NCBI RefSeq assembly: GCF_003334305.1
Contig: NZ_QOWS01000015.1
DNA from: Escherichia coli
Lineage (GTDB): Bacteria; Pseudomonadota; Gammaproteobacteria; Enterobacterales; Enterobacteriaceae
DNA: 64,000 nucleotides
Reading direction: 5' to 3' (one strand)
A model generated the notes under the pieces. That model did not search any database, was not told where the DNA came from, and saw only the letters and a list, made by a program, of their open reading frames with translations. Position numbers and translations under genes: made by a program. Of the stretch, positions 32,163 through 54,217 are shown piece after piece (positions within the stretch are counted from its first letter, which is position 1; each line of letters starts with the position of its first letter).

Positions 32163-33206
32163 ATGAGCGAGAACTCGATTCGTTTGACCCAATACAGCCA
32201 CGGAGCTGGTTGCGGCTGTAAAATTTCCCCAAAAGTGTTGGAAACCATCCTGCACAGTGAGCAGGCGAAGTTTGTTGATCCGAATTTGCTTGTGGGTAAT
32301 GAGACCCGCGACGATGCGGCGGTGTACGATCTGGGCAATGGCACCAGCGTTATCAGTACCACCGACTTCTTTATGCCGATCGTTGATAATCCTTTCGATT
32401 TTGGCCGCATTGCGGCGACTAACGCCATCAGCGATATCTTCGCGATGGGGGGCAAACCGATTATGGCGATTGCGATCCTCGGCTGGCCGATTAACAAACT
32501 TTCCCCAGAAATTGCCCGCGAAGTAACCGAAGGTGGACGCTATGCATGCCGTCAGGCGGGTATTGCGCTGGCTGGCGGTCACTCCATCGATGCGCCGGAG
32601 CCGATTTTTGGTCTGGCGGTAACGGGGATCGTACCGACCGAGCGGGTGAAGAAAAACAGTACCGCACAAGCCGGATGCAAACTGTTCCTGACGAAACCGC
32701 TGGGGATCGGCGTTCTTACCACGGCTGAGAAAAAATCACTGTTGAAACCAGAACATCAGGGACTGGCGACGGAAGTGATGTGCCGGATGAACATCGCAGG
32801 TGCGTCCTTTGCCAACATCGAAGGCGTAAAAGCGATGACCGACGTTACTGGTTTTGGTCTGCTGGGCCATTTGAGCGAAATGTGTCAGGGCGCAGGTGTG
32901 CAGGCGCGCGTTGACTATGACGCGATCCCAAAATTGCCGGGGGTTGAAGAGTACATTAAGTTGGGCGCAGTGCCTGGCGGCACCGAACGTAACTTTGCCA
33001 GCTACGGTCATCTGATGGGTGAAATGCCGCGTGAAGTGCGCGATCTGCTGTGCGATCCGCAAACTTCTGGCGGTTTGCTGCTGGCGGTCATGCCGGAAGC
33101 AGAAAATGAGGTTAAAACTACAGCCGCCGAGTTTGGCATTGAACTGACGGCGATTGGCGAACTGGTGCCAGCGCGCGGCGGTCGTGCCATGGTTGAGATC
33201 CGTTAA
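32163..33206 (+). CDS. selD: Selenide, water dikinase (selenophosphate synthetase)
   Basis: Translation begins [21 protein letters not shown] with the catalytic Cys; about 347 aa. Confidence 0.95.
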
Positions 33207-33210
33207 TTCA

Positions 33211-35172
33211 ATGCGGTTGTTTATTGCCGAAAAACCGAGTCTGGCGCGCGCCATTGCTGATGTCCTGCCCAAACCGCACCGTAAAGGCGATGGCTTTATC
33301 GAGTGCGGTAATGGTCAGGTGGTGACCTGGTGTATCGGTCACCTGCTTGAGCAGGCGCAGCCAGACGCCTACGACAGCCGCTATGCGCGCTGGAATCTTG
33401 CGGATTTGCCGATTGTCCCGGAAAAGTGGCAATTACAGCCCCGACCCTCCGTGACCAAACAACTTAACGTCATCAAACGGTTCCTGCATGAAGCCAGCGA
33501 AATCGTTCACGCCGGGGACCCGGATCGCGAAGGGCAACTGCTGGTGGATGAAGTGCTGGACTATCTACAACTGGCACCGGAAAAGCGCCAGCAGGTGCAG
33601 CGTTGCTTGATAAACGACCTGAACCCGCAGGCGGTTGAGCGGGCGATCGACCGTCTTCGTTCCAACAGTGAGTTTGTACCGCTGTGCGTTTCTGCGCTGG
33701 CGCGAGCGCGTGCCGACTGGCTGTACGGCATCAATATGACCCGTGCGTATACCATTCTCGGTCGCAATGCCGGTTATCAGGGCGTACTTTCCGTGGGACG
33801 CGTGCAGACACCCGTGCTCGGGCTGGTGGTGCGCCGCGATGAAGAGATTGAAAACTTCGTGGCGAAAGACTTCTTTGAAGTCAAAGCGCATATCGTGACA
33901 CCTGCCGATGAGCGGTTTACCGCTATCTGGCAACCGAGCGAAGCGTGTGAACCGTACCAGGATGAAGAAGGGCGCTTGTTACATCGTCCACTGGCGGAGC
34001 ATGTGGTTAACCGCATTAGTGGTCAACCGGCTATTGTCACCAGCTATAACGATAAACGGGAATCAGAATCCGCGCCGCTGCCGTTTTCGCTTTCGGCGTT
34101 GCAGATTGAAGCGGCAAAACGCTTCGGTCTGAGCGCGCAGAACGTGCTTGATATCTGCCAGAAGCTGTACGAAACGCACAAGCTAATCACTTATCCGCGT
34201 TCCGATTGTCGCTATTTGCCAGAAGAACATTTTGCCGGACGCCACGCGGTGATGAATGCCATCAGCGTTCATGCACCGGATCTGTTGCCGCAGTCAGTGG
34301 TAGATCCAGATATACGCAACCGCTGTTGGGATGACAAAAAGGTCGATGCGCACCACGCCATCATTCCGACCGCAAGGAGTTCTGCGATCAACCTGACGGA
34401 GAACGAAGCGAAGGTCTATAACCTGATTGCCCGTCAGTATCTGATGCAGTTCTGCCCGGATGCGGTGTTCCGCAAGTGTGTTATCGAACTGGACATTGCC
34501 AAAGGCAAATTTGTCGCTAAAGCGCGTTTTCTTGCTGAAGCAGGTTGGCGCGCGCTGTTAGGCAGCAAAGAGCGCGATGAAGAAAACGACGGCACGCCAT
34601 TGCCTGTGGTGGCGAAAGGCGATGAGTTGCTGTGTGAAAAAGGTGAAGTGGTAGAGCGGCAAACCCAGCCGCCGCGCCATTTTACCGATGCAACACTGCT
34701 TTCGGCGATGACCGGGATTGCGCGCTTTGTGCAGGACAAAGATCTGAAAAAGATCCTTCGTGCGACCGATGGTCTGGGGACAGAAGCAACGCGTGCCGGG
34801 ATTATTGAACTGTTGTTCAAGCGTGGTTTCCTCACCAAAAAAGGGCGCTATATCCACTCCACCGACGCCGGAAAAGCGTTATTCCATTCGCTGCCAGAAA
34901 TGGCTACGCGACCGGACATGACCGCGCACTGGGAATCGGTGCTGACGCAAATCAGCGAAAAGCAGTGTCGCTATCAGGACTTTATGCAGCCGCTGGTGGG
35001 GACGCTATATCAGCTTATTGATCAAGCCAAACGTACTCCGGTGCGGCAGTTTCGCGGCATTGTGGCTCCGGGCAGTGGTGGCAGTGCTGATAAGAAAAAG
35101 GCTGCACCGCGTAAACGTAGTGCGAAAAAAAGTCCGCCAGCAGATGAAGCCGGAAGCGGGGCGATAGCGTAA
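33211..35172 (+). CDS. topB: DNA topoisomerase III
   Basis: Translation begins [14 protein letters not shown]; type IA topoisomerase; start at internal ATG 5 nt after the selD stop, about 653 aa. Confidence 0.95.
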
Positions 35173-35211
35173 GCGAGCGAATCTTTCGTGCTATTCGAGT
35201 CATATTCTGAA

Positions 35212-35252
35212 ATATCCAGCGGATCAAGAAAATTCGTTGGATATTTTTTTTG
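35212..35252 (+). terminator. Rho-independent terminator of topB
   Basis: 10-bp stem atatccagcg/cgttggatat (one mismatch) followed by T8. Confidence 0.7.
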
Positions 35253-35299
35253 CATGGATAAAATTATCGCCTCTAAAGTATGTAATAACAGGGAATGTG

Positions 35300-36341
35300 A
35301 TGAAAAAAGTTTTATTACAAAACCATCCTGGGAGCGAGAAGTATTCTTTTAATGGCTGGGAAATATTTAATAGTAATTTTGAACGGATGATTAAAGAAAA
35401 TAAGGCCATGCTGCTTTGTAAGTGGGGGGGTGTATTTAACATGTGTTGTCGCTGTAATGTTTGTATTCGCAGCGATAACATCCAACGGTTTGAATGAAAG
35501 AGGCCTGATTACTGCGGGATGCTCTTTTCTTTATCTATTAATTATGATGGGGCTTATTGTTCGGGCCGGTTTTAAAGCAAAAAAAGAACAACTGCATTAT
35601 TATCAGGCTAAAGGTATTGAGCCGCTCAGTATCGAGAAGTTACAGGCGCTACAATTGATCGCACCTTATCGATTCTATCATAAGCAATGGTCTGAAACGC
35701 TGGAGTTCTGGCCGCGAAAGCCTGAACCTGGCAAAGATACCTTCCAATATCATGTGCTTCCTTTTGACTCGATCGATATCATAAGTAAAAGACGCGAGTC
35801 TTTAGAGGATCAATGGGGTATCGAAGATAGCGAAAGTTATTGTGCCTTAATGGAGCATTTTCTTTCTGGCGACCATGGAGCCAATACCTTTAAAGCAAAC
35901 ATGGAGAAAGCCCCAGAGCAGGTTATCGCCTTGTTGAATAAATTTGCTGTTTTTCCCTCAGACTATATCTCTGATTGCGCTAATAATCGCTCCGGTAAAT
36001 CCTCGGCGAAGCTAATATGGGCGGCGGAATTATCATGGATGATCTCGATATCAAGCACAGCTTTTCAAAACGGGACAATTGAAGAAGAACTGGCCTGGCA
36101 TTATATAATGCTTGCTTCTCGAAAGGCGCACGAGTTGTTCGAAAGCGAAGAAGATTATCAAAAAAATAGTCTAATGGGATTTCTTTACAGGCATATCTGC
36201 TGCTATCGCAGAAAGTTAACGGATGCTGAACTTGAAGCGTGTTATCGTTACGACAAGCAGTTTTGGGAGCACTACAGTAAGAAATGCCGTTGGCCCATAA
36301 GAAATGTTCCCTGGGGAGCATCATCCGTTAAATACTCATAA
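35300..36341 (+). pseudogene. ynjI: DUF1266 inner membrane protein gene ynjI, frameshifted at a 7-G homopolymer (35424-35430)
   Basis: The MKKVLL... frame stops at 35497; the main frame opens at GTG 35430; removing one G would fuse them into a 346-aa ORF. Confidence 0.6.
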
Positions 36342-36457: not shown

Positions 36458-37801
36458 TTAAATCACACCCTGCGCCAGCATCGCATCGGCAACCTTCACA
36501 AAACCGGCAATGTTCGCGCCCTGCACGTAGTTGGTTTGCTCACCTTCACCACCATGCTCAACACAGGCATGGTGGATATCCAGCATGATGTGATGCAAAC
36601 GTGCGTCAACTTTCTCGGCTTTCCAGCCCAGGCGCGCAGCGTTTTGTGCCATTTCCAGGCCCGACGTTGCTACACCGCCAGCATTAGCCGCTTTACCCGG
36701 TGCAAACAGTACGCCTGCCTGCTGGAACAGTTCAGTCGCTTCGATGGTGGTCGGCATATTTGCCCCTTCAGCGACGGCTTTAACGCCATTGGCGATAAGC
36801 TGATGCGCGGCGTCAACATCCAGTTCGTTCTGGGTGGCGCAAGGCAGGGCGATATCAACCGGTACAGACCACGGCTGTTGGCCTTCGAGATAGACCAGAC
36901 CAAATTCTTTGGCGTAATCTGCCACTCGACCATCGCGGCTGGCTTTGATTTCGATAAGACGTGCCAGTTTCTCTTTCGTGAATCCGCTTTCATCAACTAC
37001 AGTGCCGCTGGAGTCTGACGCAGTGATCACACGAGCACCAAATTCCATCGCTTTTTCGATAGCGTACTGGGCGACGTTGCCGGAGCCAGAAACGGAAACG
37101 CGCATCCCTTCAAAACCCATACCGTGGCGTTTTAACATTGCTTCTGTGAAATAAACCAGACCGTAGCCGGTAGCTTCCGGGCGAATAAGACTACCGCCAA
37201 ATGAAAGGCCCTTACCGGTGAAGACGCAGGCGGTATTGTTGGAGAGCTTTTTCATCATCCCCGCCATAAAGCCGACTTCACGACCACCAACGCCGATATC
37301 ACCTGCCGGAACGTCGGTATCCGCGCCCAGATGACGATAAAGCTCGGTCATCAGCGCCTGGCAGAAACGCATCACTTCGCCTTCGCTTTTACCTTTCGGA
37401 TCAAAATCGCTACCGCCTTTACCACCGCCCATCGGCAGGGTAGTCAGGGCATTTTTGAAGGTTTGTTCGAAGCCGAGGAATTTGAGAATGGAGAGGTTAA
37501 CTGACGGATGGAAGCGCATACCGCCTTTGTACGGGCCGATGGCAGAGCTGAACTGCACACGCCATGCACGGTTGACCTGTACCTGATTGCGATCATCAAC
37601 CCATACCACGCGAAACTGGATCACGCGCTCCGGTTCAACCAGACGCTCCAGTAATGACATCTGGCGATATTTTGGATTTTGTTCAAGAAAAGGCCAGAGT
37701 GTGGTCATTACTTCACGAACGGCTTGCGCGAACTCGGTTTGATTCGGGTCGCGCTTTTGGACATGGTTGAGGAATGACTCCAGAGAATATGTCTGATCCA
37801 T
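36458..37801 (-). CDS. gdhA: NADP-specific glutamate dehydrogenase
   Basis: 447 aa with the Glu/Leu/Phe/Val dehydrogenase active-site Lys motif (GPYKGGMRF). Confidence 0.95.
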   Translation of the reverse strand: MDQTYSLESFLNHVQKRDPNQTEFAQAVREVMTTLWPFLEQNPKYRQMSLLERLVEPERVIQFRVVWVDDRNQVQVNRAWRVQFSSAIGPYKGGMRFHPSVNLSILKFLGFEQTFKNALTTLPMGGGKGGSDFDPKGKSEGEVMRFCQALMTELYRHLGADTDVPAGDIGVGGREVGFMAGMMKKLSNNTACVFTGKGLSFGGSLIRPEATGYGLVYFTEAMLKRHGMGFEGMRVSVSGSGNVAQYAIEKAMEFGARVITASDSSGTVVDESGFTKEKLARLIEIKASRDGRVADYAKEFGLVYLEGQQPWSVPVDIALPCATQNELDVDAAHQLIANGVKAVAEGANMPTTIEATELFQQAGVLFAPGKAANAGGVATSGLEMAQNAARLGWKAEKVDARLHHIMLDIHHACVEHGGEGEQTNYVQGANIAGFVKVADAMLAQGVI

Positions 37802-38036
37802 AGATATAAAACCCTTATATATTAATACGATTGTGCTTATGTTGTTTATGTGATGTGCTTTTGCAGTTTTCGACTATACCATCAAGAATGTGACGGTAAG
37901 CAAGAAAAAAATGACCCAGGAAAGCAAATTAATAACGAGAGTAATCTCATAACCAAATGCGATAACTCAGACGCTAAAGTTTTGCCACCCGGCTACCGTT
38001 ATCAGTAGCAGAGACAATAACGTTAAGGAGTTCCCT

Positions 38037-38309
38037 GTGAGTCGAGCATTGTTCGCCGTAGTATTAGCATTTCCATTAATTGCACTGGCTAACCCGCATT
38101 ATCGTCCGGACGTGGAGGTAAACGTACCGCCAGAAGTGTTCAGTTCAGGCGGGCAGTCAGCGCAGCCCTGTACTCAGTGCTGCGTTTATCAGGATCAAAA
38201 TTATTCTGAAGGGGCGGTAATTAAAGCCGAAGGAATACTGCTGCAATGCCAGCGGGATGACAAAACCCTTAGCACTAATCCGCTGCTCTGGCGGCGCGTA
38301 AAGCCATAA
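38037..38309 (+). CDS. ynjH: DUF1496-family secreted protein
   Basis: 90-aa ORF with signal peptide, GTG start. Confidence 0.75.
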   Translation: MSRALFAVVLAFPLIALANPHYRPDVEVNVPPEVFSSGGQSAQPCTQCCVYQDQNYSEGAVIKAEGILLQCQRDDKTLSTNPLLWRRVKP

Positions 38310-38682
38310 ACGCCTCTAATAGTGGAATGTCAGCAGGGGCCAGCGGATATTGCAGCGCCTCTTCAGGTGAGCACCAGACCAGCGCCTGATGTTCATGTGC
38401 CTGTAACGTCCCGTGGAAGTCGGGTACGTGCCAGGCATGAAGATGGATAATCCGGCCCGAAACTTCTCGCTGATGGCTGGCAACATACTCACCCACAGTT
38501 GCTTCGATGCCCAATTCTTCGTTTAACTCACGCACCAGTGCCTGCTGCTGGCTTTCATCCAGCTCGACTTTACCACCGGCAAACTCCCATAATCCCGCCT
38601 GATCGCTCTGGGCGGGGCGTTGCGCGAGTAAAATTTTGCCATCACGTTCAATGATGGCGGCAACAACTTCAATCATTTTCAT
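38275..38682 (-). CDS. nudG: Nudix hydrolase (CTP pyrophosphohydrolase)
   Basis: Nudix box (GGKVE...RELNEELG); 135 aa. Confidence 0.85.
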   Translation of the reverse strand: MKMIEVVAAIIERDGKILLAQRPAQSDQAGLWEFAGGKVELDESQQQALVRELNEELGIEATVGEYVASHQREVSGRIIHLHAWHVPDFHGTLQAHEHQALVWCSPEEALQYPLAPADIPLLEAFMALRAARAAD

Positions 38683-38768
38683 AAATTACACACGGGCAGA
38701 TAAGCGAAAAATGCCATAATATCCGCACTGTTGCTCAATCAGAAAGGCTTTATATTTAAGGAGTGCCT

Positions 38769-39389
38769 GTGCTAGACCGCCATCTTCATCCCCGGATTAA
38801 ACCGTTGTTGCATCAGTGCGTGCGGGTTCTTGATAAACCGGGCATTACGCCAGATGGTTTAACATTAGTGGGATTTGCCATCGGCGTGCTGGCTCTGCCG
38901 TTTCTGGCGCTGGGCTGGTATCTGGCGGCGCTAGTCGTCATTTTGTTGAACAGGCTGCTTGATGGTCTGGACGGTGCGCTGGCGCGGCGCAGAGAGCTTA
39001 CCGACGCGGGCGGCTTTCTTGATATTTCTCTCGATTTTCTCTTTTACGCGCTGGTGCCGTTTGGCTTTATTCTTGCTGCACCGGAGCAAAATGCGCTGGC
39101 AGGCGGCTGGTTGTTGTTTGCGTTTATCGGCACGGGCAGCAGTTTTCTCGCCTTTGCTGCACTGGCAGCAAAACATCAGATTGATAACCCCGGTTATGCA
39201 CATAAGTCGTTTTACTATCTGGGGGGATTAACCGAAGGCACAGAAACGATCTTACTGTTTGTGCTGGGATGTTTATTCCCTGCATGGTTTGCGTGGTTTG
39301 CGTGGATCTTCGGTGCGTTGTGCTGGATGACGACCTTTACGCGGGTGTGGAGTGGGTATCTGACGCTGAAGTCGCTCCAGCGTCAGTAA
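38769..39389 (+). CDS. ynjF: CDP-alcohol phosphatidyltransferase-family membrane protein
   Basis: D-G-x2-A-R motif (DGLDGALARR); GTG start with AAGGAG ribosome-binding site; about 206 aa. Confidence 0.8.
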   Translation: MLDRHLHPRIKPLLHQCVRVLDKPGITPDGLTLVGFAIGVLALPFLALGWYLAALVVILLNRLLDGLDGALARRRELTDAGGFLDISLDFLFYALVPFGFILAAPEQNALAGGWLLFAFIGTGSSFLAFAALAAKHQIDNPGYAHKSFYYLGGLTEGTETILLFVLGCLFPAWFAWFAWIFGALCWMTTFTRVWSGYLTLKSLQRQ

Positions 39390-39397
39390 TTGCAATG

Positions 39398-40705
39398 TTA
39401 TTTGCTACTGTCCGGGCCGCGTTCACCGGTTGCTACCGGATTTTTTGGATCGCTGCTCCATTCGTACCAGCCGCCGTCATACACGGAAACATTCTTCCAA
39501 CCCATGGCGCGTGCGTACATAAAGGTTTCGGACGCGCGCCAGCCGGTGCCGCAGTAGAATGAAACTTGCTGCTCTGGTTTGATATTCCACGCTTTCCACA
39601 TAGCGGTAATATCATCGGCGCTGCGCATGGTGCCATCCGGGTTATGAAAATCTTCCATATGCGTCGAGTCGCTACCAGCGTGTCCCCAACGTGCTCCGGC
39701 TATTTCACCTTTTGGTTTAATATAGCTGTAACCGCTGGTCGTACCGATAAATTCTGGCCACGAACGAATGCTCACCAGCGATGCATCCTGGCGATGCAGC
39801 AGTCCACGGGCCTGTTCCATATCGAGCATCAACTGCGGTTGTGCCGGGATCTTCACGCCGAAATCCGGTTCCGCTTTCACTTTCGGTGGCGTTCCTCGCT
39901 CAACAGGCAGTCCCGCGTCGGACCAGGTTTGCCAGCCGCCATCCAGCAGACGCACATCTTTCACGCCTGCGTAGAGCATAATTTGCGCCACACGCGCTCC
40001 AGCGTATACGTCACGCCCGTACAGAATGACCGTGGTGTCATGGCGAATGCCGTGTTTTGCCAGCATCGCTTTTAGTTGTTCATCAGAAACTTTGTTCCAC
40101 AGCGGTTCGCTTTCCACTTCGTTGGTATCGATGTAGTCAGCGCCAGGAATATGGCTGATAAGGTAAAGCTTAGGAGCGCCCCAGGCCGCTTCAATGACTT
40201 TCCAGTCACCGGCAGGTTTCGCCGTAACCTCTTTACCTTGTTGCAGGTCGTGCAGCCATTGCGGATAAACCAGCTGCTCAAAGTGCGGCAGTTTTTGTAG
40301 ACGGGAAGGTTCGCTTAGCGCGTCACTCAGAATGGAGATATGCGTAAAACCTGCTTTTTGCAGACGCGTTTTGACGGCGTCGACATCTTTGTCATTGCCG
40401 TACAGCGCCACCGGAGCATCGGTTTTCAGATTATGTTGCTTGATCCACTCATAGAGCTGTTCGGTGCTCATTTTGTCGAGCCAGCTGGCAGAGAGGTTTA
40501 AGGCGGCAGGTTCATGACCAGAAGGGCCATTTAAGGTTTGTGGCCAGCCGTTATAAAACGCGCTGGGGCGAGTATCTATCGCTTTGCCATTTTGTTGTTG
40601 AAGCTGGTCAAGTGTAAGAGGCTTCGCCAGTTCAGCGGCCCACGAAGAAGCGCAAGCCAGCCCTAAAGCCATTGCCAGCGCGGTCATTTGAGAAACACGT
40701 TTCAT
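39398..40705 (-). CDS. ynjE: Periplasmic thiosulfate sulfurtransferase with three rhodanese domains
   Basis: Signal peptide and rhodanese active-site Cys (FYCGTGWRA); start could also be the upstream ATG at 40720. Confidence 0.85.
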   Translation of the reverse strand: MKRVSQMTALAMALGLACASSWAAELAKPLTLDQLQQQNGKAIDTRPSAFYNGWPQTLNGPSGHEPAALNLSASWLDKMSTEQLYEWIKQHNLKTDAPVALYGNDKDVDAVKTRLQKAGFTHISILSDALSEPSRLQKLPHFEQLVYPQWLHDLQQGKEVTAKPAGDWKVIEAAWGAPKLYLISHIPGADYIDTNEVESEPLWNKVSDEQLKAMLAKHGIRHDTTVILYGRDVYAGARVAQIMLYAGVKDVRLLDGGWQTWSDAGLPVERGTPPKVKAEPDFGVKIPAQPQLMLDMEQARGLLHRQDASLVSIRSWPEFIGTTSGYSYIKPKGEIAGARWGHAGSDSTHMEDFHNPDGTMRSADDITAMWKAWNIKPEQQVSFYCGTGWRASETFMYARAMGWKNVSVYDGGWYEWSSDPKNPVATGERGPDSSK

Positions 40706-40771
40706 CGAAAATCCCGACATTGTAGTTTTGAGTGCGCCATTCTGAACTGACGCATTGAGAAAAACTTTGCG

Positions 40772-41425
40772 TTATCGCAGTTTGTTGTAATTTTCTGACC
40801 ACTGCGCCATATCCAGAACAGAACTATCAGCAGGAACATCCTGGAGATCGTGCGTTACCTGAACGACGGGGATCGCCAGTTCGCGAACTTCGCTGAACAC
40901 CCACTGGCGAAAATTATCGCGCAGAGCCACATCAAGACGGCTGAATGGCTCATCCAGGAGTAACGCTTTTGGCTGAGCGAGAAGGGCGCGCAGCAGGGCC
41001 ACCCGCGCTCGCTGACCGCCTGATAATGTCGCAGGGTCCTGGTGATAAGTTTCAGCCAGTCCCGCTCGATCAAGCGCGTCTTTCACGGCATTGCGCCTGG
41101 CAGTCCCCTTGAGCGTCGACGGTAGCGCCAGCAGTAAATTTTGCCCGACGCTGAACTGGTCAAATAACAGTGCATCCTGGAAAAGAATGCCAATCTGACG
41201 CTGTGCGGTGGGTAGCATGTCAATCCGTTGCTCATTGAACCATAGCTCACCTGTACAAGAAAACTGTCCAGCCAGTGCACCAATCATCCATGAAAACAGA
41301 GTGGATTTTCCACAGCCAGACGGCCCCATTAACGTGACAATGTCACCTTTATCCACCGTAAAGTTAACGTTTGTCAGCAAGCGGCTTTCTGGTAAACGTA
41401 GCGAAACATTTTTCACGCAGAGCAT
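40772..41425 (-). CDS. ynjD: ABC transporter ATP-binding protein
   Basis: Walker A (GPSGCGKST) and ABC signature (LSGGQ); start ATG overlaps the ynjC stop (TAATG). Confidence 0.85.
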   Translation of the reverse strand: MLCVKNVSLRLPESRLLTNVNFTVDKGDIVTLMGPSGCGKSTLFSWMIGALAGQFSCTGELWFNEQRIDMLPTAQRQIGILFQDALLFDQFSVGQNLLLALPSTLKGTARRNAVKDALDRAGLAETYHQDPATLSGGQRARVALLRALLAQPKALLLDEPFSRLDVALRDNFRQWVFSEVRELAIPVVQVTHDLQDVPADSSVLDMAQWSENYNKLR

Positions 41426-42960
41426 TAGCGGAGTCCTTGTCTGACATAACCTACCCATTTTGCGACTAACGCGGTCAGGGCAAAAATAATAAGCGGTAAC
41501 AACAGTTGCCATAAAGCCTGGGCGGCGAGAATACCGTTGCTGCCGCCGCTGCTTAATGCCACCGCCTCAGTGGTGAGCGTCGGAAAACGCCCCGCGCCCA
41601 GCCACAGCGTCGGCATATACTGCGCAATACTGACTGAAAATCCCACCGCGAAGGCAATCAGCACAGGGCGCAACATGAGTGGGCATTTCACGTAAAAGAA
41701 GATTTTGGCCCGCGACCAGCCCAGTGTTTGCGCAATCAAAATTAACCGTGAATCAATGCGCTGCCAGGCGGGTTGCAGGATAAACAGCATCCACGGCATT
41801 ACCCACAGCAGATGCCCCCAGACCACCGCCGTCCAGCTTCCATCCAGGTTCAGCCATAGCGCCAGCGTGTACTGGCCCGCCACCAGTGGCAGAGCGGGCA
41901 ATAGAATGGGCAACCAGAGCCACAACTGGCGACGCTGTGGCCCCCATTCCAGCCACAGCAGTAACAGGAGCAAAGCGATGAATGTCGCCACCAGCCCCAT
42001 TGTCAGGCTGTTGATGAGTGCTTCACTATTGATCGTCGACTGATCCGCGAGGATCGCCAGCAGAACCACACACAGCACACCGGTTAAGGGTAAAAAACTC
42101 GCCAGCGTAGTGCCTGGTAATAAAGGTGTGGCAGGCTTGCGAATGCCATCTACGCGGGGAATAGTGCGCCGCCAGCTGCGCCATAGCAGATAGCTCAGCA
42201 AAACGTAGGCGGCGAGTAACAGCATCAGCAGCAGACTGGCGAGTGCGCCTTTCGTTTGTTGATCCGCGTCGCCCTGAGTTAACCACTGCCAGCTAATTAC
42301 TGCCAGCGTCGGTGGATTACCTGGCCCAAGAATAATCGCCACATCCACGACCGAAAGCGACCAGGCAACAATCGCCAGCATCGCCATTGCCAGCGAAGGC
42401 GCGACGGAGGGCAACAGCAGCCAGTTCAGGCATTGCCAGCGGCTGTAGCCCAGCGAATCCAGCACAATGACCTGCTGCAACAGCCGTTTTTCGCTCAATA
42501 CTGCCGCTAAGATCCACAGCAGAAATGCGCTTTCTTTCACTGCAAGGGTGAGGCCCAGACCGATGCCAAATCGGTCCATTGGCGGAGTGAAATACGGGAA
42601 ATAGTCATATAGCAGCCCTCCGTCAGCAAAGAGCAGCAGGGCGCTGGTGGCAAAAGCCACATGGGGAATGGCGAGCAGCCACGGCAGACGGGCGCACATA
42701 CGCTGCCATTTCGGCCCAGGCCATAGCGCCACAATCACCAGCAGGGCAATCAACAATGCCCCGACCGCCGCGATGGTTGTCGACACCAGCGTTGCCAGTA
42801 ATGCATGCGGTAACTGTGGATCGGCAAATAACGCCTGCCAGTGTGTCAACGACAACGCAGGCGATATCAGCGTGAGAGCTGCCGGGATCAGCGGTGCATA
42901 AATCACCGCCACCATCGCCCACAGCAAAAAGATTAATGCGTACCGTAACGGCGTAACCAT
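41425..42960 (-). CDS. ynjC: ABC transporter permease with duplicated transmembrane domain
   Basis: About 511-aa multi-TM ORF; its start overlaps the ynjB 3' end. Confidence 0.85.
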   Translation of the reverse strand: MVTPLRYALIFLLWAMVAVIYAPLIPAALTLISPALSLTHWQALFADPQLPHALLATLVSTTIAAVGALLIALLVIVALWPGPKWQRMCARLPWLLAIPHVAFATSALLLFADGGLLYDYFPYFTPPMDRFGIGLGLTLAVKESAFLLWILAAVLSEKRLLQQVIVLDSLGYSRWQCLNWLLLPSVAPSLAMAMLAIVAWSLSVVDVAIILGPGNPPTLAVISWQWLTQGDADQQTKGALASLLLMLLLAAYVLLSYLLWRSWRRTIPRVDGIRKPATPLLPGTTLASFLPLTGVLCVVLLAILADQSTINSEALINSLTMGLVATFIALLLLLLWLEWGPQRRQLWLWLPILLPALPLVAGQYTLALWLNLDGSWTAVVWGHLLWVMPWMLFILQPAWQRIDSRLILIAQTLGWSRAKIFFYVKCPLMLRPVLIAFAVGFSVSIAQYMPTLWLGAGRFPTLTTEAVALSSGGSNGILAAQALWQLLLPLIIFALTALVAKWVGYVRQGLR

Positions 42961-44099
42961 TCTTGTTCCAGTGCATTCACCCATCCTGCGTGCGGTTCAG
43001 CCAGTACCGGCGGCAGATCCTGCGGCATTCTTGATTGCAATATTTCGCGCTGCCCGTCAGGCAGTTTTTGCGGATCGAGAACAGAAGGATCGCCCCAGAC
43101 AACGGGATCTGCTTTACGCAGTTGCGCATCGGGTGAGAGCAGGAAATTGGCAACTACCTTCGCCGCAGCACTGGCATTCGCGTTGGCTGGAATGGTGACG
43201 AAATGCACGTTGCCTATCATCCCCTCGCGAAAGCCAAAACTGTAACTGCTTGCCGGCAAATCGCCGCTGGCGATTTTTTGCTGCGCATGCGCGGGGCTAA
43301 AGGTCAGCGACAGGCGCAATGTGCCGGCTTTCAGCAGAGCATCCATCCGCGCGGGCGAAGGCGGGAAATCCTTTCCTTCGCGCCACAAATACGGATGTAG
43401 CGCATCAAGATATTGCCACAAGGGAGCAGTGACACGGGCGAAAGTCGCATCGTCCGGCGCTTCTTTTAATGCGGCGGGATCTGGCGTCAGCATAATCAGC
43501 AACTGTTCAAGAAACGCCGTGCCGGTAAAGTCCGGTGGGCGCGGATAAGTAACCGTGCCGGGATTGACTTTAGCAAACTCCAGTAAGGCTTGCGGCGTTT
43601 GTGGTGGCTGTGGCGTAACATCGCGGCGGGCGATAAACGTCAGTTGTGCGCCGCCCCAGGGCGATTCCGCACCTTGTGTCGGCACTGAAAAATCTTCCCG
43701 CACCGGCAGCTGTGTGTCGACATAGCGCCAGTTGGGCAGAGTCTCCGCCCAGCCCGTTTGTAATAAATTGGCCTCTTTTAAGGTGCGGAAGTTTTCGCCG
43801 TTCACCCAGAGCAGATCCACCGAGCCGCCCGTTTTACGTCCGGCAGCAGCTTCGGTCTGAATGCGCTTCACCGCGTCTGCGGCATCCGCGAGACGAACAA
43901 TCTTCAGGTTTATAGCGTAATGGGTTTTCATCTCGCCGCTAACCCAGTCGAGATAGCGGTTAATTGCGGTATCGCCGCCCCAGGCGTTAAACCAGACGGT
44001 TTGCCCTTTGGCCTCATTTTTAATTTCCTGCCAGTCACTGGCATGTGTTGCCAAAGAAAACAGCGATAACAATCCCAGCAACCACCCACAATGGCGCAT
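42933..44099 (-). CDS. ynjB: ABC transporter periplasmic substrate-binding protein
   Basis: 388 aa with signal peptide. Confidence 0.85.
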   Translation of the reverse strand: MRHCGWLLGLLSLFSLATHASDWQEIKNEAKGQTVWFNAWGGDTAINRYLDWVSGEMKTHYAINLKIVRLADAADAVKRIQTEAAAGRKTGGSVDLLWVNGENFRTLKEANLLQTGWAETLPNWRYVDTQLPVREDFSVPTQGAESPWGGAQLTFIARRDVTPQPPQTPQALLEFAKVNPGTVTYPRPPDFTGTAFLEQLLIMLTPDPAALKEAPDDATFARVTAPLWQYLDALHPYLWREGKDFPPSPARMDALLKAGTLRLSLTFSPAHAQQKIASGDLPASSYSFGFREGMIGNVHFVTIPANANASAAAKVVANFLLSPDAQLRKADPVVWGDPSVLDPQKLPDGQREILQSRMPQDLPPVLAEPHAGWVNALEQEWLRRYGTH

Positions 44100-44108
44100 C
44101 TTCCCTCC

Positions 44109-44657
44109 TTAAGAACGTTTTTCCGGAATACGGCACAGCCCCTGAGCGGGAATGTCCATGGCAGAATTAAAACGAGCCGACAGGTTTTGCAGGCCGATCA
44201 ATGCCGTCAGTTCGGTGAGCGCCTGAGCGTCAAAATGCGCAGCCAGTCGGGTACGCAGGGCATCATCGACTGTTGGCGGTGTGACGCTTGCGGCTTCGGC
44301 GTACTCCAGCGCCAGCCGTTCTTCATCGCTAAAGAGCGGGCTTTGCCGCCAGTCAGCCACTGCCAGCAGTTTATCGTTGCTGCCGGTACGCTCGGCGACT
44401 TTCATACTGGTGATATCCACGCAAAACTCACACAGGCACATTTGCGCAATGCGCGCGCTGACAAGCGATCGCACTACCGGATCGAGCGGTGAGCGTTTGC
44501 GCTCCAGCCACCCAACAAACATTGACACCAAATAAAAGATAAACGGGATCCGCCCCCACCAGCGAATCGGGCTTAGCACCTCGCCGTAATGGCGACGATG
44601 CAGCCACGCCTGCGGACGTAAAATGAAAGGAATTTTGCTAAGCGGCGGTAAACCCAT
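44109..44657 (-). CDS. ynjA: Carboxymuconolactone decarboxylase (AhpD-like) family protein
   Basis: 182 aa; start overlaps the ydjZ stop by 1 nt. Confidence 0.8.
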   Translation of the reverse strand: MGLPPLSKIPFILRPQAWLHRRHYGEVLSPIRWWGRIPFIFYLVSMFVGWLERKRSPLDPVVRSLVSARIAQMCLCEFCVDITSMKVAERTGSNDKLLAVADWRQSPLFSDEERLALEYAEAASVTPPTVDDALRTRLAAHFDAQALTELTALIGLQNLSARFNSAMDIPAQGLCRIPEKRS

Positions 44658-45364
44658 CAGTCATTCCTCTTCTGGCGCTCAAGCCATATTTTCTTCGCCA
44701 TAAAAATCACCACGGTCAGGGCAAACAGAATAAACAGTCCGGTGACAAACCAGAAAGTACCGCCTGTTAACATGCTGCCCGCCCAGGAATAAACAATAGT
44801 CGCCGGTAATTGACCAAGCCCGGTGGCGATAAAAAACGAGCGAAAACGTATTGAAGTCAGACCGGCAGCATAGCTGATTGGATCGAAAGGGACAAAAGGC
44901 AATAACCGACAGACCAGGATGGTGTGTTTGCCGTAGCGAGTGAAAAAGCCGTCCATACTGTCAAGCACGGTTTTGCCGGTTAATTTTTCCACCACTTCGC
45001 GGCCCATCACTCTGGCGATAAAAAAGCACAGCGCCGCGCCGGCCATCGAACTGGTCCACGACAGCAAGCCGCCCCAGAACGCGCCAAACAGCGACGCATT
45101 GGCAAAGGTGATCAAAAACGCAGGTAGCGGTGCAGCAATGGCCTGTAAAATCATCAACAAGAACGAGACAACTGCCGCCAGTGCGCCGTAAGACTGAATA
45201 AAGCGTTCTATACCCTGTTGGTCCACGGCGGCAAACGCCGCAACGCTGCGATTGATAAACTCATGGACGCCGGGAAGCAGCGCCCATGCGAGCAGCATAG
45301 CGAACAACAGGATGATGAGGGTTATACGGTAGTACCAGATTTTACGCGATTGTATCTTCATCAT
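44657..45364 (-). CDS. ydjZ: DedA/TVP38-family inner membrane protein
   Basis: 235-aa multi-TM ORF. Confidence 0.85.
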   Translation of the reverse strand: MMKIQSRKIWYYRITLIILLFAMLLAWALLPGVHEFINRSVAAFAAVDQQGIERFIQSYGALAAVVSFLLMILQAIAAPLPAFLITFANASLFGAFWGGLLSWTSSMAGAALCFFIARVMGREVVEKLTGKTVLDSMDGFFTRYGKHTILVCRLLPFVPFDPISYAAGLTSIRFRSFFIATGLGQLPATIVYSWAGSMLTGGTFWFVTGLFILFALTVVIFMAKKIWLERQKRND

Positions 45365-45378
45365 CCTTTATCCTGGCT

Positions 45379-46056
45379 TTATTCGGTGATTTTAAAGGTA
45401 ACCGTTGCCAGCGTGTTATCCGCCGGGAGAACTGAGGCATTGCCTTTGAATTTCACTTCGCCGCGTTTTTCCACCGCACCATAAGTGTATGTTGCATTGC
45501 TGACGATGCCGACCGGGCAGCTATCCAGACACACCAGGCAACCCGTTTTCTTCTCTTCTGCTGCCGTTAAATTACCGCCAAAGCGCATGTCCAGTTTCTT
45601 GCCATTACTGTCAACAATCACTTCATCGAAGGAATACGCTTTTGCCGCCCCTTGCCAGTTGACCGAAATATCCAGTTTGCTGCCTGTGACATGAGTCGTT
45701 TCTTTATTATCCATCGTCATGTTTTCGCCCGGCGTACCACCTGCCTCTTTCAGGGCTTCATAAAATGCTTTCGGGGTCGCATAAGCCATAAACAGCGATT
45801 TATGTCCGTTGGAGCCATCTTTAAACACAATACCGTGACGAGTGTCGTCGGTGAGGAAACGACCATTAATTTGCACCAGCATGGTTACCGTATGGTTATT
45901 GGCATCGACGCGCAGCGGTTGGCTGTTCGAAAGTCCGTCGTATTCCACTTTTGCCGCCGCATTCTCTTTTTGATCGCAGCCGCTAAGCCCGGCAACAGCC
46001 AGTAAGCAGAGTGCAGCCAGTCCTTTTTTCCATGACACTGAATAATGTTGCGACAT
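45379..46056 (-). CDS. ydjY: Lipoprotein YdjY
   Basis: Start at internal ATG (MSQHYSVSWKKGLAALCLLAVAGLSGC) with lipobox; about 225 aa. Confidence 0.8.
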   Translation of the reverse strand: MSQHYSVSWKKGLAALCLLAVAGLSGCDQKENAAAKVEYDGLSNSQPLRVDANNHTVTMLVQINGRFLTDDTRHGIVFKDGSNGHKSLFMAYATPKAFYEALKEAGGTPGENMTMDNKETTHVTGSKLDISVNWQGAAKAYSFDEVIVDSNGKKLDMRFGGNLTAAEEKKTGCLVCLDSCPVGIVSNATYTYGAVEKRGEVKFKGNASVLPADNTLATVTFKITE

Positions 46057-46060
46057 CGTT

Positions 46061-46771
46061 CTATCCTTCATTTTTTGGGTGAGTAAGTGGGCTGCGGCGC
46101 GAAGCAGACAGATCCACATGTTTGTGTCGGGCGTAGAGTTTTGCGAGCTGGACGAGAATAAACAGCGCCAGGCCCGCCAGACAGAGTTGTAAAATAAAGC
46201 GCAGCGTAATGCCTTCATTGGCGAGATCGCTTGCCATCACGGTATAAATAACAATACCGGGCAGGGTCGTGAGTGCCGAAATAAGGGTATAAGGCCAGAA
46301 GGCGATGGTGGTTAATCCGTAAGCGTAATTTTGAATATTGTAAGGAAACAACGGGATTAAGCGGGTCAGAATAAGAAAATCAATACCGTTACGCGCAATG
46401 CCTTTTTCAATGGCCTGGAAGGTATGGCTATGGCCCACGTATTTCAGCAGTAAATCACGTCCCAGCCAGCGCGCCAGCAGGAATGAGCACGAGGAGGCCA
46501 GCGTTGCGGCAATTAATGAGAGTAGTGTCCCTAAGAGCGGGCCAAAAACTATTCCTCCAGCGATCACCAGTATGCTTCCTGGTAACAGAAAGAGGGTGGC
46601 AATGATGAATAACAGAATATAGAGGCTACAACCGAACAATCCGCTCTGGCGAATGAGTGTCTGTAAGTGGGGTAAATCGGTGAGCAGATCGAATAAACCG
46701 AAAGCGTGGATAGCGTAAATGACCAGCGCAAAAATAAGACAGGCAAACAGAAAGTTACGCTCAGCGTTCAT
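46061..46771 (-). CDS. ydjX: TVP38/TMEM64 (DedA-related) family inner membrane protein
   Basis: Start at internal ATG (MNAERNFLFACLIF...), about 236 aa. Confidence 0.8.
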   Translation of the reverse strand: MNAERNFLFACLIFALVIYAIHAFGLFDLLTDLPHLQTLIRQSGLFGCSLYILLFIIATLFLLPGSILVIAGGIVFGPLLGTLLSLIAATLASSCSFLLARWLGRDLLLKYVGHSHTFQAIEKGIARNGIDFLILTRLIPLFPYNIQNYAYGLTTIAFWPYTLISALTTLPGIVIYTVMASDLANEGITLRFILQLCLAGLALFILVQLAKLYARHKHVDLSASRRSPLTHPKNEG

Positions 46772-46937
46772 CGTGGAGTTTCCTATATCAAACTTGATAA
46801 TAGAGAAGTGGTCAGACAACTAAAAACGCAGTGACGGTATAACAAAGGACGGCAGGCAACAAATCATTACTGACAGTTTGTTGATTTTTCTCAAGGTTAA
46901 TTCTCCTGACCCAGTTTGAGCCAGGAGAGCTGCTAAA

Positions 46938-47744
46938 TTAGCGGCGGAAGGTCGCCCAGACGGGGGCGTGATCGGACGGTTTTTCCATGCTGCGAATTTC
47001 ATAGTCGATGCCGGTTTCTACGCAACATTCTGCCAGCGGTTGGCTGGCGAGCAGCAGGTCGATGCGCAGACCACGGTTATCGTCAAAACCTTTTGAGCGG
47101 TAATCAAACCATGAGAAACGATCTGCTGTTTGCGGATTAGCATGGCGGAAGGTATCGACCAACCCCCAGCTCATCAGCCTGTCCATCCATTCGCGCTCTT
47201 CCGGCAGGAAAGAGCATTTACCGGTACGCAGCCAGCGCTTACGGTTTTCTTCGCCAATGCCGATATCCAGATCTGTAGGGCTGATATTCATATCGCCCAT
47301 AATCAGTACCGGATTATCACGTTTGAGTTCGGTTTCCAGGTAGTTTTGCAGATTCTGATAAAACTGCGCTTTTGCCGGGAATTTTATCGGATGGTCGCGG
47401 CTTTCACCCTGCGGGAAGTAACCGTTGATCACGGTGACATTACCCAGCAGTGAGGGGATTTCCGCCATAATAATCCGCCGCTGCGCCTCTTCGTCGTCAC
47501 CGGGAAAGCCGCGACGCACGGCAATCGGCGTCTCTTTGGTCAGCAGCGCCACGCCATAATGGCCTTTCTGCCCGTGATAAAACACGTTGTAGCCGAGCTT
47601 CGCCACCTCTTCGAGCGGAAACATATCGTCATGAACTTTTGTCTCCTGCAGGCCAATCACATCCGGTTGGTGCTTTTCGACGATGGCTTCAAGCTGGTGA
47701 GGTCTGGCGCGCAGGCCGTTGATATTAAAAGAGACAAATTTCAT
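46938..47744 (-). CDS. xthA: Exodeoxyribonuclease III
   Basis: Translation begins [14 protein letters not shown]; start at internal ATG, 268 aa. Confidence 0.95.
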
Positions 47745-48102
47745 AGTCGCTGCCATTTATTCAGATAAAGAGTGCGTGGATGGTAGCAGAATTTCGCGTT
47801 GCTTACCGCCTGTTGTTAAGTGATTTGATCGATGGTTGTTAATGATGTCAACGATGGCGCAAAAAATGCCCGCTTTTGGTGCGCGCTGCGTCAGAATGGC
47901 GCAGTAATTTCCAGTAAATTTCGTCAATGATCACAATTCCAGAATTATATTTTACTTCTGCATAACATTGCGTTTTTTATTCTTTTTATTCACCCACATC
48001 GCAAACGTATTCACTTTATATGCACTTTAAATGCATATGGTTTGGTTATAACTCCTTGATTTCCAGTTAGCCTCCGCCGTTTATGCACTTTTATCACTGG
48101 CT

Positions 48103-48118
48103 GGCACGAACCCTGCAA
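48103..48118 (+). promoter_or_regulatory. Sigma-54 (-24/-12) promoter element of the ast operon
   Basis: TGGCACgaaccCTGCA with GG-N10-GC spacing, about 70 nt upstream of astC; the ast operon is known to be NtrC/sigma-54 dependent. Confidence 0.6.
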
Positions 48119-48153
48119 TCTACATTTACAGCGCAAACATTACTTATTGTTAA

Positions 48154-54217
<6,064 letters not shown>

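Follow-up and report, generated by a model that had tools for sequence, protein, structure and literature searches.

The ydjX-to-ynjF genes of Escherichia coli as a conserved, anaerobically induced envelope module with a possible role in chalcogen handling

YedE, YedF and the DUF3343 proteins are published selenium-linked candidates, and the literature further records a specific selenite uptake route in Escherichia coli, given there as unidentified, and, by a second-hand citation, altered selenite uptake reported for a DedA mutant of Ralstonia/Cupriavidus. The DedA proteins of the COG0398 branch, for which E. coli YdjZ has served as the representative in the literature, are predicted by published analysis to be phospholipid scramblases, and their commonest fusion partner is a pyridine-nucleotide disulfide oxidoreductase. 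In E. coli, YdjX and YdjZ of this branch are encoded by ydjXYZ-ynjABCD, a published transcription unit that is directly activated by FNR from a site at -60.5; the adjacent ynjE has its own FNR-activated promoter, with an FNR site at -41.5, according to a paper based on chromatin immunoprecipitation (ChIP). Here these genes and their neighbours were analysed in a stretch of 64,000 nucleotides of E. coli DNA, referred to as the window, in which they occupy positions 38037-46771.

The results support the view that the genes from ydjX to ynjF act as one functional unit, because ydjXYZ-ynjABCD and ynjE share FNR activation and a transcriptome-derived regulatory grouping (iModulon), and the gene set recurs across phyla and is linked by fusions. 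The locus, its regulation and a molybdenum and selenium suggestion are already in the literature, a function is not; what is added here is the definition of the module across phyla, its division into core and accessory genes, the fusions and the exclusion of nudG. Our preferred reading, held tentatively and with the balance tipped slightly against it, is that ydjX-ynjF is one horizontally mobile, anaerobically induced envelope module which relays a thiophilic chalcogen across the inner membrane, with a lipid step perhaps involved and selenium likelier than sulfane sulfur. A preliminary description of the same DNA, made from sequence alone, had proposed a coordinated envelope or sulfur-compound uptake and processing pathway. 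The coordination of ydjX-ynjF, the sulfur-type chemistry and uptake through YnjBCD remain reasonable; nudG drops out, and selenium is favoured over thiosulfate and organosulfur compounds.

The gene map was obtained by carrying the RefSeq annotation over to window coordinates and re-translating each open reading frame (ORF). The annotated genes are:

38037-38309, + strand: ynjH, DUF1496
38275-38682, - strand: nudG, NF007834
38769-39389, + strand: ynjF, CDP-alcohol phosphatidyltransferase family
39398-40705, - strand: ynjE, three-domain rhodanese
40772-41425, - strand: ynjD, ATPase of an ATP-binding cassette (ABC) system
41425-42960, - strand: ynjC, fused double ABC permease
42933-44099, - strand: ynjB, periplasmic substrate-binding protein
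44109-44657, - strand: ynjA, AhpD/CMD family
44657-45364, - strand: ydjZ, TVP38/TMEM64 membrane protein
45379-46056, - strand: ydjY, lipoprotein
46061-46771, - strand: ydjX, TVP38/TMEM64 membrane protein

All ten genes named in the preliminary description fall within these 8.7 kb of E. coli chromosome, their clustering being confirmed by the transferred annotation and by intact ORFs; its list passed over ynjH, though 38037 is the start of that very gene. Every ORF from ynjH to ydjX was intact on re-translation. The region is 100% identical to that of E. coli strain A7 and was found in 5425 of 5426 complete E. coli genomes, with coverage of at least 80% in 5393. Two of the 5458 places in the E. 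coli collection that match 38037-46771 are plasmid-borne rather than chromosomal.

From ydjX to ynjD seven genes run in the same direction with spacings between -28 and +14 nt, a packing that indicates an operon and agrees with the published ydjXYZ-ynjABCD transcription unit. The junctions comprise gaps of 4 nt (ydjX/ydjY), 14 nt (ydjY/ydjZ) and 9 nt (ynjA/ynjB), 1-nt overlaps at ydjZ/ynjA (TGATG, the ydjZ stop being TGA) and at ynjC/ynjD (TAATG), and a 28-nt overlap at ynjB/ynjC; the last two had been read correctly from the outset, but ydjZ/ynjA had been given as TAATG. The spacer between ynjD and ynjE measures 66 nt. Convergent with ynjE across an 8-nt gap (39390-39397), ynjF is divergent from nudG over 86 nt, and ynjH and nudG overlap tail to tail by 35 nt (38275-38309). 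The ydjX-to-ynjF region is at least three transcription units on two strands, with ynjE set behind its spacer under its own promoter, and not the single tightly packed module first described. Independent transcription had been offered in advance as an argument against a shared function; technically it does apply to ynjE and ynjF, yet it does not overturn a shared function, since these units have their regulation and inheritance in common with the other genes.

The co-regulation is on record from several sources. An independent component analysis of transcriptomes places ydjXYZ-ynjABCD, ynjE, yedEF and yjiLM in one 'uncharacterized iModulon', which is more active anaerobically and less active in fnr and arcA mutants, and for which its authors proposed molybdenum and selenium usage. 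Transcripts of ynjE, ydjY and yjiL decrease together in a ygfI mutant, those of ydjY, ynjE and yjiM increase together upon O2 depletion in O157, and overproduction of BaeR brings a modest rise of ynjABCD. Two candidate control sites were located in the window:

46881-46894, strand not assigned: FNR-box-like site TTGAGAAAAATCAA, differing from TTGAT-N4-ATCAA at one position, 110-123 nt before the ydjX ATG
40719-40746, - strand: sigma-70-like promoter TTCAGA-16-TACAAT inside the ynjD-ynjE spacer, fitting a separate FNR-dependent ynjE promoter

The first of these is consistent with the published FNR site at -60.5. Over the whole window the FNR pattern gave 49 matches against 36 expected, which is no enrichment, so that the FNR claim for the ydjX promoter is carried by the literature. 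A search of the ynjD-ynjE spacer for the FNR consensus with up to 2 mismatches yielded no box, and the published ChIP-based site is relied on there. A terminator scan returned 24 intragenic hits where 12 were expected, gave nothing at the operon ends where terminators should lie, and was not used as evidence; the exception was a terminator-like hairpin at 39426-39439 (+) for ynjF, within the 3' end of ynjE. Both ynjE-ynjF and nudG-ynjH were named as overlapping-transcript 'excludons' in a 2025 survey. No RNA family was matched in an Rfam search of 37000-48200.

To follow the gene set beyond E. coli, YdjY was used as an anchor. When one genome per GTDB species was scanned, 95 relatives came up, and 80 loci were retained; the analysis covered 78 non-Escherichia YdjY loci, some from protein look-ups, grouped by hand into 35 lineages. 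Retrieval employed three very conserved YdjY peptide patterns and is biased to close YdjY relatives. The ORFs of each locus were called mechanically, and hence crudely, and searched with the E. coli proteins, and all neighbours were clustered. The loci span Bacillota, Desulfobacterota, Campylobacterota and Spirochaetota. Neighbours of YdjY, counted as lineages having the gene within 10 kb, were as follows:

31 of 35 lineages: TVP38 gene (YdjZ-like, 200-280 bits; often a YdjX-like one too)
16 of 35 lineages: CCG/Fe-S reductase-like protein, related to the C-terminal part of NF045663
12 of 35 lineages: membrane protein of ~130 aa with a W-[LV]-E-M-R motif
11 of 35 lineages: radical SAM protein ArsS and TIGR04282/TIGR04283 transferases
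9 of 35 lineages: rhodanese
7 of 35 lineages: YnjB-family substrate-binding protein, permeases and ATPase
5 of 35 lineages: YedF
4 of 35 lineages: SelD
4 of 35 lineages: YnjF-like transferase

Scores for ArsS, TIGR04282/3, YedF, SelD, SelA, SelB and the clostridial YnjB lie over the curated NCBIfam cutoffs. The most strongly conserved partner of YdjY is YdjZ: a YdjZ-like gene adjoins YdjY in 64 of the 78 distant loci, and a second, YdjX-like VTT gene stands beside it in 34. In Desulfobacterota the CCG/Fe-S protein often forms the N-terminal part of a fusion with the TVP38 domain. Searching the 78 loci with phmmer revealed no homologue of YnjA or NudG; a distant metagenomic YnjA homologue (L092) lies in an unrelated context.

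In Bacillota a single strand of locus L052 carries ydjY-smallTM-ydjX-ydjZ-CCG/Fe-S-ynjF-ynjB-ynjC-ynjC-ynjD (smallTM being a small membrane protein) and L060 differs slightly. This order almost matches that of the E. coli operon, the Fe-S protein standing in the position of YnjA and ynjF lying inside the operon. Clostridium punense (L065) has the same set in a less regular order. YnjF-like genes are found directly upstream of ynjB in the clostridial operons and, in Formimonas, beside ydjZ with no ynjB nearby. The YnjE-type rhodaneses that adjoin YdjY in Campylobacter, Catonella and Peptostreptococcaceae keep both the CG[TS]GWRA loop and export signals. Several of the partners also occur fused to YdjY: rhodanese in P0394, P0469 and further 'sulfurtransferase' entries of AFDB, TVP38 in P0429, and, in the 478-aa P0488, an N-terminal OlsE-like fatty-acid/ornithine-lipid hydroxylase domain. 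A further fusion, P0406 (645 aa), joins YdjY to a C-terminal repeat array whose repeats start near TWYFAEGYTG.

The small membrane protein with the W-[LV]-E-M-R motif, hereafter WLEMR protein, was previously unnamed. It has ~125-155 aa and stands beside ydjY in at least 26 loci (for example L062:1985-2362, L022:6145-6540, L052:10735-11157 and L004:10666-11130), and the 395-aa YdjZ of Finegoldia, Gemella and Catonella carries it as an N-terminal fusion. It is absent from E. coli and has no NCBIfam match. In Finegoldia (L002/L018-L020, 2600-9900) ydjY-ydjZ comes directly after a corrinoid methyltransferase set made up of URO-D-like proteins, a B12-binding protein, a RACo-type activator and CobW, together with an ECF-type component.

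Variation within Enterobacterales separates the core of the module from its surroundings. Klebsiella aerogenes has the E. coli gene order without ydjY and ynjH. Citrobacter and Kluyvera also lack ydjY, and there the YnjA orthologue (57% identical) lies upstream of ynjF and overlaps it. In Edwardsiella hoshinae YnjA-YnjF, YnjE and one TVP38 gene are found at an unrelated chromosomal site, with no ABC system, ydjY, nudG or ynjH. From these variants the portable core would be TVP38, YnjA, YnjF and YnjE; the lipid enzyme YnjF is part of this conserved core, YnjBCD and YdjY are frequent additions to it, and nudG and ynjH are local neighbours. As nudG accompanies the gene set only at the xthA-gdhA site of Enterobacteriaceae, and is missing both where the set has moved in Edwardsiella and in every one of the 78 distant loci, its earlier inclusion was not borne out; neither nudG nor ynjH is supported as a module member.

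The protein families assigned in the preliminary description hold, as judged by NCBIfam and Pfam matches and by the domains of orthologues, those from Citrobacter, Kluyvera and Klebsiella carrying VTT_dom, CDP-OH_P_transf, Rhodanese and NUDIX. YdjX and YdjZ, both named TVP38/TMEM64 in RefSeq, are VTT/DedA-domain proteins of the COG0398 type; their orthologues at 80-90% identity carry PF09335 (VTT_dom), and their NCBIfam matches, to the UptA and DedA models, are weak. YdjY (NCBIfam NF040466) has the lipobox LSGC followed by Asp at +2, and the established +2 rule then predicts retention at the inner membrane. Its invariant residues are C173-x2-C176-x3-C180, R73 and H74. The family is small, with 396 representatives among 1.84 billion clusters, and the E. 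coli protein shares 50-60% identity with those of Firmicutes, Desulfobacterota and Campylobacterota. The label '4Fe-4S ferredoxin' attached to YdjY was rejected, the Pfam Fer4 match being insignificant (E 0.09-0.25) and the conserved cysteines only three; it is an annotation artefact of the C-x2-C-x3-CP string. A readable signal peptide and the catalytic loop C385-G-T-G-W-R, kept in orthologues, identify YnjE as an exported rhodanese. The literature describes it as periplasmic and poorly active with thiosulfate and 3-mercaptopyruvate, and calls its physiological substrate unclear. YnjA matches Pfam CMD (E 3.6e-8) and combines a hydrophobic N-terminal segment with a C76-E-F-C79 motif that is kept in the Citrobacter orthologue. 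Its best NCBIfam match, NF053654 'YciW-related (seleno)protein', reaches 101 bits against a cutoff of 310, making it a homologue and not a member, and its relatives in the PDB are generic AhpD/CMD proteins and the debrominase Bmp8.

The remaining proteins supply an importer and a lipid enzyme. YnjB, YnjC and YnjD together have the substrate-binding protein, permease and ATPase motifs of a type I ABC importer. YnjB matches NF008633 at 555 bits (cutoff 203) as well as Pfam SBP_bac_8, and belongs to subfamily PRK11622, as does the C. punense YnjB-like protein (457 bits); a homologue search gave close enterobacterial relatives only, and a sequence search for solved relatives gave no structure. The best matches of YnjC are to 2-aminoethylphosphonate, molybdate and sulfate permease families, all under cutoffs, and in the ABC ATPase YnjD the Walker A, signature, Walker B and H-loop elements are readable. 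YnjF retains every residue of the CDP-alcohol phosphatidyltransferase motif D-x2-D-G-x2-A-R-x7/8-G-x3-D-x3-D (D65, D68, G69, A72, R73, G81, D85 and D89), with a spacer presumably one residue shorter than that of PgsA. Orthologues of YnjF carry PF01066. At 63 bits against 180 and 42 against 170 it falls under the equivalog cutoffs for archaetidylinositol-phosphate and PIP synthases, and so is a relative of these enzymes and not a member. Literature searches found no functional study of YdjY, YnjA, YnjB or YnjF. Of the two local neighbours, NudG matches NF007834 (265 bits, cutoff 156) as a pyrimidine (d)NTP pyrophosphohydrolase, and YnjH is a small secreted four-cysteine protein of DUF1496 with no NCBIfam match. 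Beyond ynjH, ynjI (DUF1266; 35300-36341, +) is a frameshifted pseudogene in the annotation of the 100%-identical strain A7, and the GC content dips at 35000-35999 (ynjI) to 0.42, compared with ~0.52 in the flanks.

The associations of YdjY suggest selenium more than thiosulfate or organosulfur compounds. In Desulfobacterota YedF and SelD adjoin YdjY-TVP38, SelD following YdjY directly in L025. The SelD linkage, seen in 4 of the 35 lineages, may be set against a rough chance estimate of ~0.006 per lineage; YedF is linked in 5 of the 35, and the Facklamia linkage is explicable by a selenocysteine-containing PrdB-like gene. An 18-kb stretch of Syntrophus sp. (L082, 989-18940) brings together yjiM/yjiL-like genes, a rhodanese, the small transmembrane protein, CCG-TVP38, YdjY, ArsS, TIGR04282/3, a second yjiM-like gene and YedF, and is the physical counterpart of the E. 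coli co-expression module. Next after YedF in L057 comes a DUF3343 protein resembling YtiA, which in E. coli is encoded by the third gene of the yjiM-yjiL unit. Slackia is described as having 2-hydroxyglutaryl-CoA-dehydratase-like genes, of the family of YjiL/YjiM, in the same selenium neighbourhood.

The PrdB-like genes inside the YdjY clusters of Facklamia and Bacillus benzoevorans (L079:3693-4160; also L078, L080, L084, L086 and L067) stop at TGA and then continue in frame as …SPG-U-YICHQSVGLIQ…, from which they probably encode selenoproteins. The Facklamia cluster goes on, after the PrdB-like gene, with selD, a YedF-like gene, selB and selA.

Every version of the module pairs extracytoplasmic cysteine proteins (YdjY, rhodanese) with a reductase-type partner at the cytoplasmic face (YnjA or CCG/Fe-S), an arrangement that fits a cysteine-based relay; the Facklamia cluster adds a CcdA/DsbD-like protein and a ResA-like thioredoxin. 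Such a relay might work as follows. On anoxia FNR switches on ydjXYZ-ynjABCD and ynjE, a step shown in the literature. In the periplasm YnjE (Cys385) and the inner-membrane-anchored YdjY (C-x2-C-x3-C) would take up the element as persulfide or perselenide, as the rhodanese-YdjY fusions and co-occurrence suggest. YdjX and YdjZ would carry the chalcogen, or a carrier lipid, across the membrane, and YnjF, fed by YnjBCD, may make the carrier or its head group, to judge from the clostridial ynjF-ynjB adjacency and from ynjF being part of the minimal set in Edwardsiella. At the cytoplasmic face the membrane-anchored CxxC protein YnjA would release the chalcogen by reduction, its place probably being taken in other phyla by the heterodisulfide-reductase-like CCG/Fe-S protein, often TVP38-fused, that occupies the same position. 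The product would then reach users in the cytoplasm, for instance SelD in the supply of the anaerobic formate dehydrogenase selenoproteins, with YedE/YedF acting alongside, consistent with the co-expression in E. coli and the linkage elsewhere. A more specific form, in which a head group imported by YnjBCD would be made by YnjF into a carrier lipid, flipped by YdjX/YdjZ, loaded with selenium by YnjE/YdjY and unloaded reductively in the cytoplasm by YnjA (elsewhere by the heterodisulfide-reductase-like Fe-S protein fused to TVP38), we regard as distinctly unlikely.

A number of points tell against a chalcogen relay. None of the E. coli genes has an experimental connection with selenium. For YnjE the biochemical role in print is to transfer sulfur in molybdopterin formation, although this is ill-matched to its periplasmic location. 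The selenocysteine machinery of Facklamia and Bacillus benzoevorans may simply serve the PrdB-like selenoprotein of the same cluster. The commonest biosynthetic neighbours of YdjY, ArsS and TIGR04282/3, bear NCBI names for arsenosugar synthesis, and none is present in E. coli. YnjB, YnjC and YnjD are closer to thiamine, polyamine and aminoethylphosphonate importers than to oxyanion importers, and this likeness to organic-cation and phosphonate systems does not favour selenite or thiosulfate as a direct substrate. COG0398 DedA proteins are classed with putative scramblases, not with solute carriers. The sample of loci, with its bias to close YdjY relatives, crude ORF calls and hand-grouped lineages, also counsels caution. 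In the window selD (32157-33206, +), followed by topB, lies ~5 kb beyond ynjH; this proximity was rejected as evidence, since the module has another location in Edwardsiella and ancestral synteny is the probable explanation.

A lipid role for the module is also indicated, by YnjF in the core, by the associations with a flippase, a hydroxylase and a family 2 glycosyltransferase (GT2), and by the scramblase prediction for TVP38. The genes might even serve a special lipid with no chalcogen cargo: YnjBCD would import a polar head-group precursor (an amine, a polyol or a compound of 5-deoxyribose type), YnjF would join it to CDP-diacylglycerol and YdjX/YdjZ would scramble the product to the outer leaflet, leaving YdjY, YnjE and YnjA only to modify it or keep it reduced. 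This we consider unlikely, and we say the same of its counterpart in other phyla, where ArsS, a nucleoside hydrolase, an MtnK-like kinase, a CofC-like nucleotidyltransferase, GT2, a small protein with four transmembrane segments and TVP38 would reach the same end. In its favour are the place of YnjF in the minimal Edwardsiella core and directly before ynjB in clostridial operons, the predicted scramblase activity of COG0398 proteins, the organic-cation and phosphonate relatives of YnjBCD, the fusion of YdjY to an OlsE-like lipid hydroxylase, and an MprF-flippase-like protein (TIGR00374, over cutoff) directly after ydjZ in five lineages (L032:12658-13653; L017, L039, L049 and L067). The TIGR04283 GT2, which resembles polyprenyl-phosphate glycosyltransferases, also matches the undecaprenyl-phosphate Ara4FN transferase family, and the loci with ArsS also carry a nucleoside hydrolase and a kinase of the APH type, the family to which methylthioribose kinase belongs. 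By analogy these loci suggest a route from a 5'-deoxy-5'-X-adenosine through 5-X-ribose, its phosphate and a nucleotide sugar to a lipid-linked sugar that would be flipped outward. No YnjF-like gene was detected in them, however, and the cysteine and disulfide-reductase partners, the rhodanese-YdjY fusions, the SelD/YedF linkage and the co-expression with yedEF are all left unexplained. A special lipid is compatible with the chalcogen relay and may be one part of it, so that the two are not strictly exclusive.

The other explanations fare less well. Sulfur might be supplied for the molybdenum cofactor or other anaerobic needs, with YnjE as the molybdopterin-synthase sulfurtransferase that it is annotated and cited to be and the transporter and membrane proteins importing thiosulfate or a related source, which comes close to the sulfur-uptake proposal of the preliminary description. 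The co-induction with molybdoenzyme operons under FNR and the mention of molybdenum by the iModulon authors agree with this; yet YnjE is periplasmic and poor or inactive with thiosulfate and 3-mercaptopyruvate, the conversion of thiosulfate to sulfane sulfur is ascribed in the literature to PspE and not to YnjE, and no molybdenum cofactor biosynthesis genes recur near YdjY, which makes it very unlikely. A role in arsenic or antimony handling, with As(III) or methylarsenite bound on the three cysteines of YdjY, ArsS-type arsenosugar/arsenolipid chemistry and an arsenosugar phospholipid made by YnjF, would account for ArsS, TIGR04282 and TIGR04283, over their cutoffs, next to YdjY in 11 of the 35 lineages, and a YdjY-fold protein does occur in Desulfuribacillus stibiiarsenatis. 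Three-cysteine sites are moreover the classical As(III) ligand set, as in ArsR, ArsD and ArsM. A purely arsenic function is down-weighted, to the highly improbable, because no ArsM, ArsR, ArsB/Acr3 or ArsC family appears among the annotated recurrent neighbour clusters; E. coli, Finegoldia and Gemella, besides, carry YdjY without ArsS, and the E. coli genes are co-expressed with yedEF rather than ars genes. That the genes have no common function, and merely happen to sit between xthA and gdhA, could draw on the three or more transcription units on two strands, on the characterised and unrelated activity of NudG and on literature searches that found no published phenotype joining the genes. It is hardly credible, and already disfavoured by the synteny data, given the recurrence of the set in several phyla, its almost unchanged order in Clostridia, a core relocated as a unit in Edwardsiella, the domain fusions and the shared regulon.

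Found in >99% of complete E. coli genomes, the cluster belongs to the better-conserved 'y-genes' of the species and is without an assigned role. The set that recurs across phyla consists of YdjY, the small WLEMR membrane protein, TVP38, a disulfide-reductase-like partner, rhodanese, YnjF and YnjBCD. Were the chalcogen relay confirmed with selenium as its cargo, the specific acquisition route feeding the anaerobic formate dehydrogenases, postulated for decades, would be identified; the TVP38 branch of the DedA superfamily, with its eukaryotic relatives TMEM41B and VMP1, would gain a function, and the periplasmic export of a rhodanese credited with a cytoplasmic role in molybdenum cofactor synthesis would be explained. 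The lipid-assisted form would in addition provide the low-concentration selenium uptake route of E. coli and a first physiological substrate for bacterial COG0398 DedA proteins. Should the chalcogen relay prove wrong, the genes would be an ordinary, already catalogued operon of the FNR regulon.

Comparison with known systems shows partial likenesses in several directions. The COG0398/TVP38 branch of TMEM41B/VMP1-like scramblases includes YdjX and YdjZ, and its published disulfide-reductase fusions parallel the CCG/Fe-S fusions and the YnjA partner of the YdjY loci; the branch has been described as tied to aerobic metabolism, whereas the YdjX/YdjZ sub-group is FNR-induced and found in anaerobes. 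In rhodanese and TusA/DsrE-type relays and in YeeE/YeeD thiosulfate uptake, sulfur is handed on between cysteines from a rhodanese onward, and YnjE has the catalytic cysteine loop, but here the rhodanese and the three-cysteine acceptor are extracytoplasmic and are tied to TVP38, a lipid transferase and an ABC importer. The best-scoring characterised relatives of YnjB, YnjC and YnjD are the ThiBPQ, PhnSTUV and PotABCD importers, YnjC having the fused double permease of ThiP and PhnU2; YnjBCD nevertheless scores far under the equivalog cutoffs, and YnjB is in its own subfamily, PRK11622.

The Arn (ArnC/ArnEF), Gtr (GtrB/GtrA) and Lic (LicABCD) pathways offer an analogy only: their pattern of kinase or nucleotidyltransferase, GT2 or phosphotransferase, small multi-transmembrane protein and flippase is matched by the ArsS-containing YdjY loci, where the WLEMR protein is without a family match. 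The ArsS/TIGR04282/TIGR04283 set, accompanied by the APH-type kinase and nucleoside hydrolase, is itself the biosynthetic neighbour found most often beside YdjY-TVP38 (11 of 35), yet none of its genes is in the E. coli region, where YnjBCD and YnjF take their place, and Finegoldia and Gemella have YdjY without it. Finally, YedE/YedF (FdhT/FdhU in Campylobacter), a candidate selenium acquisition pair proposed in the literature to serve anaerobic selenoenzymes, differs in its folds, a YeeE/YedE-type transporter and SirA/DsrE folds as against DedA/TVP38, the YdjY fold, rhodanese and AhpD here, and comes without an ABC importer or lipid enzyme. It nonetheless resembles the present module in combining a membrane protein with a cysteine-bearing, sulfurtransferase-like partner, in being co-expressed with it in E. 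coli, and in the physical linkage of YedF to YdjY-TVP38 in five lineages.

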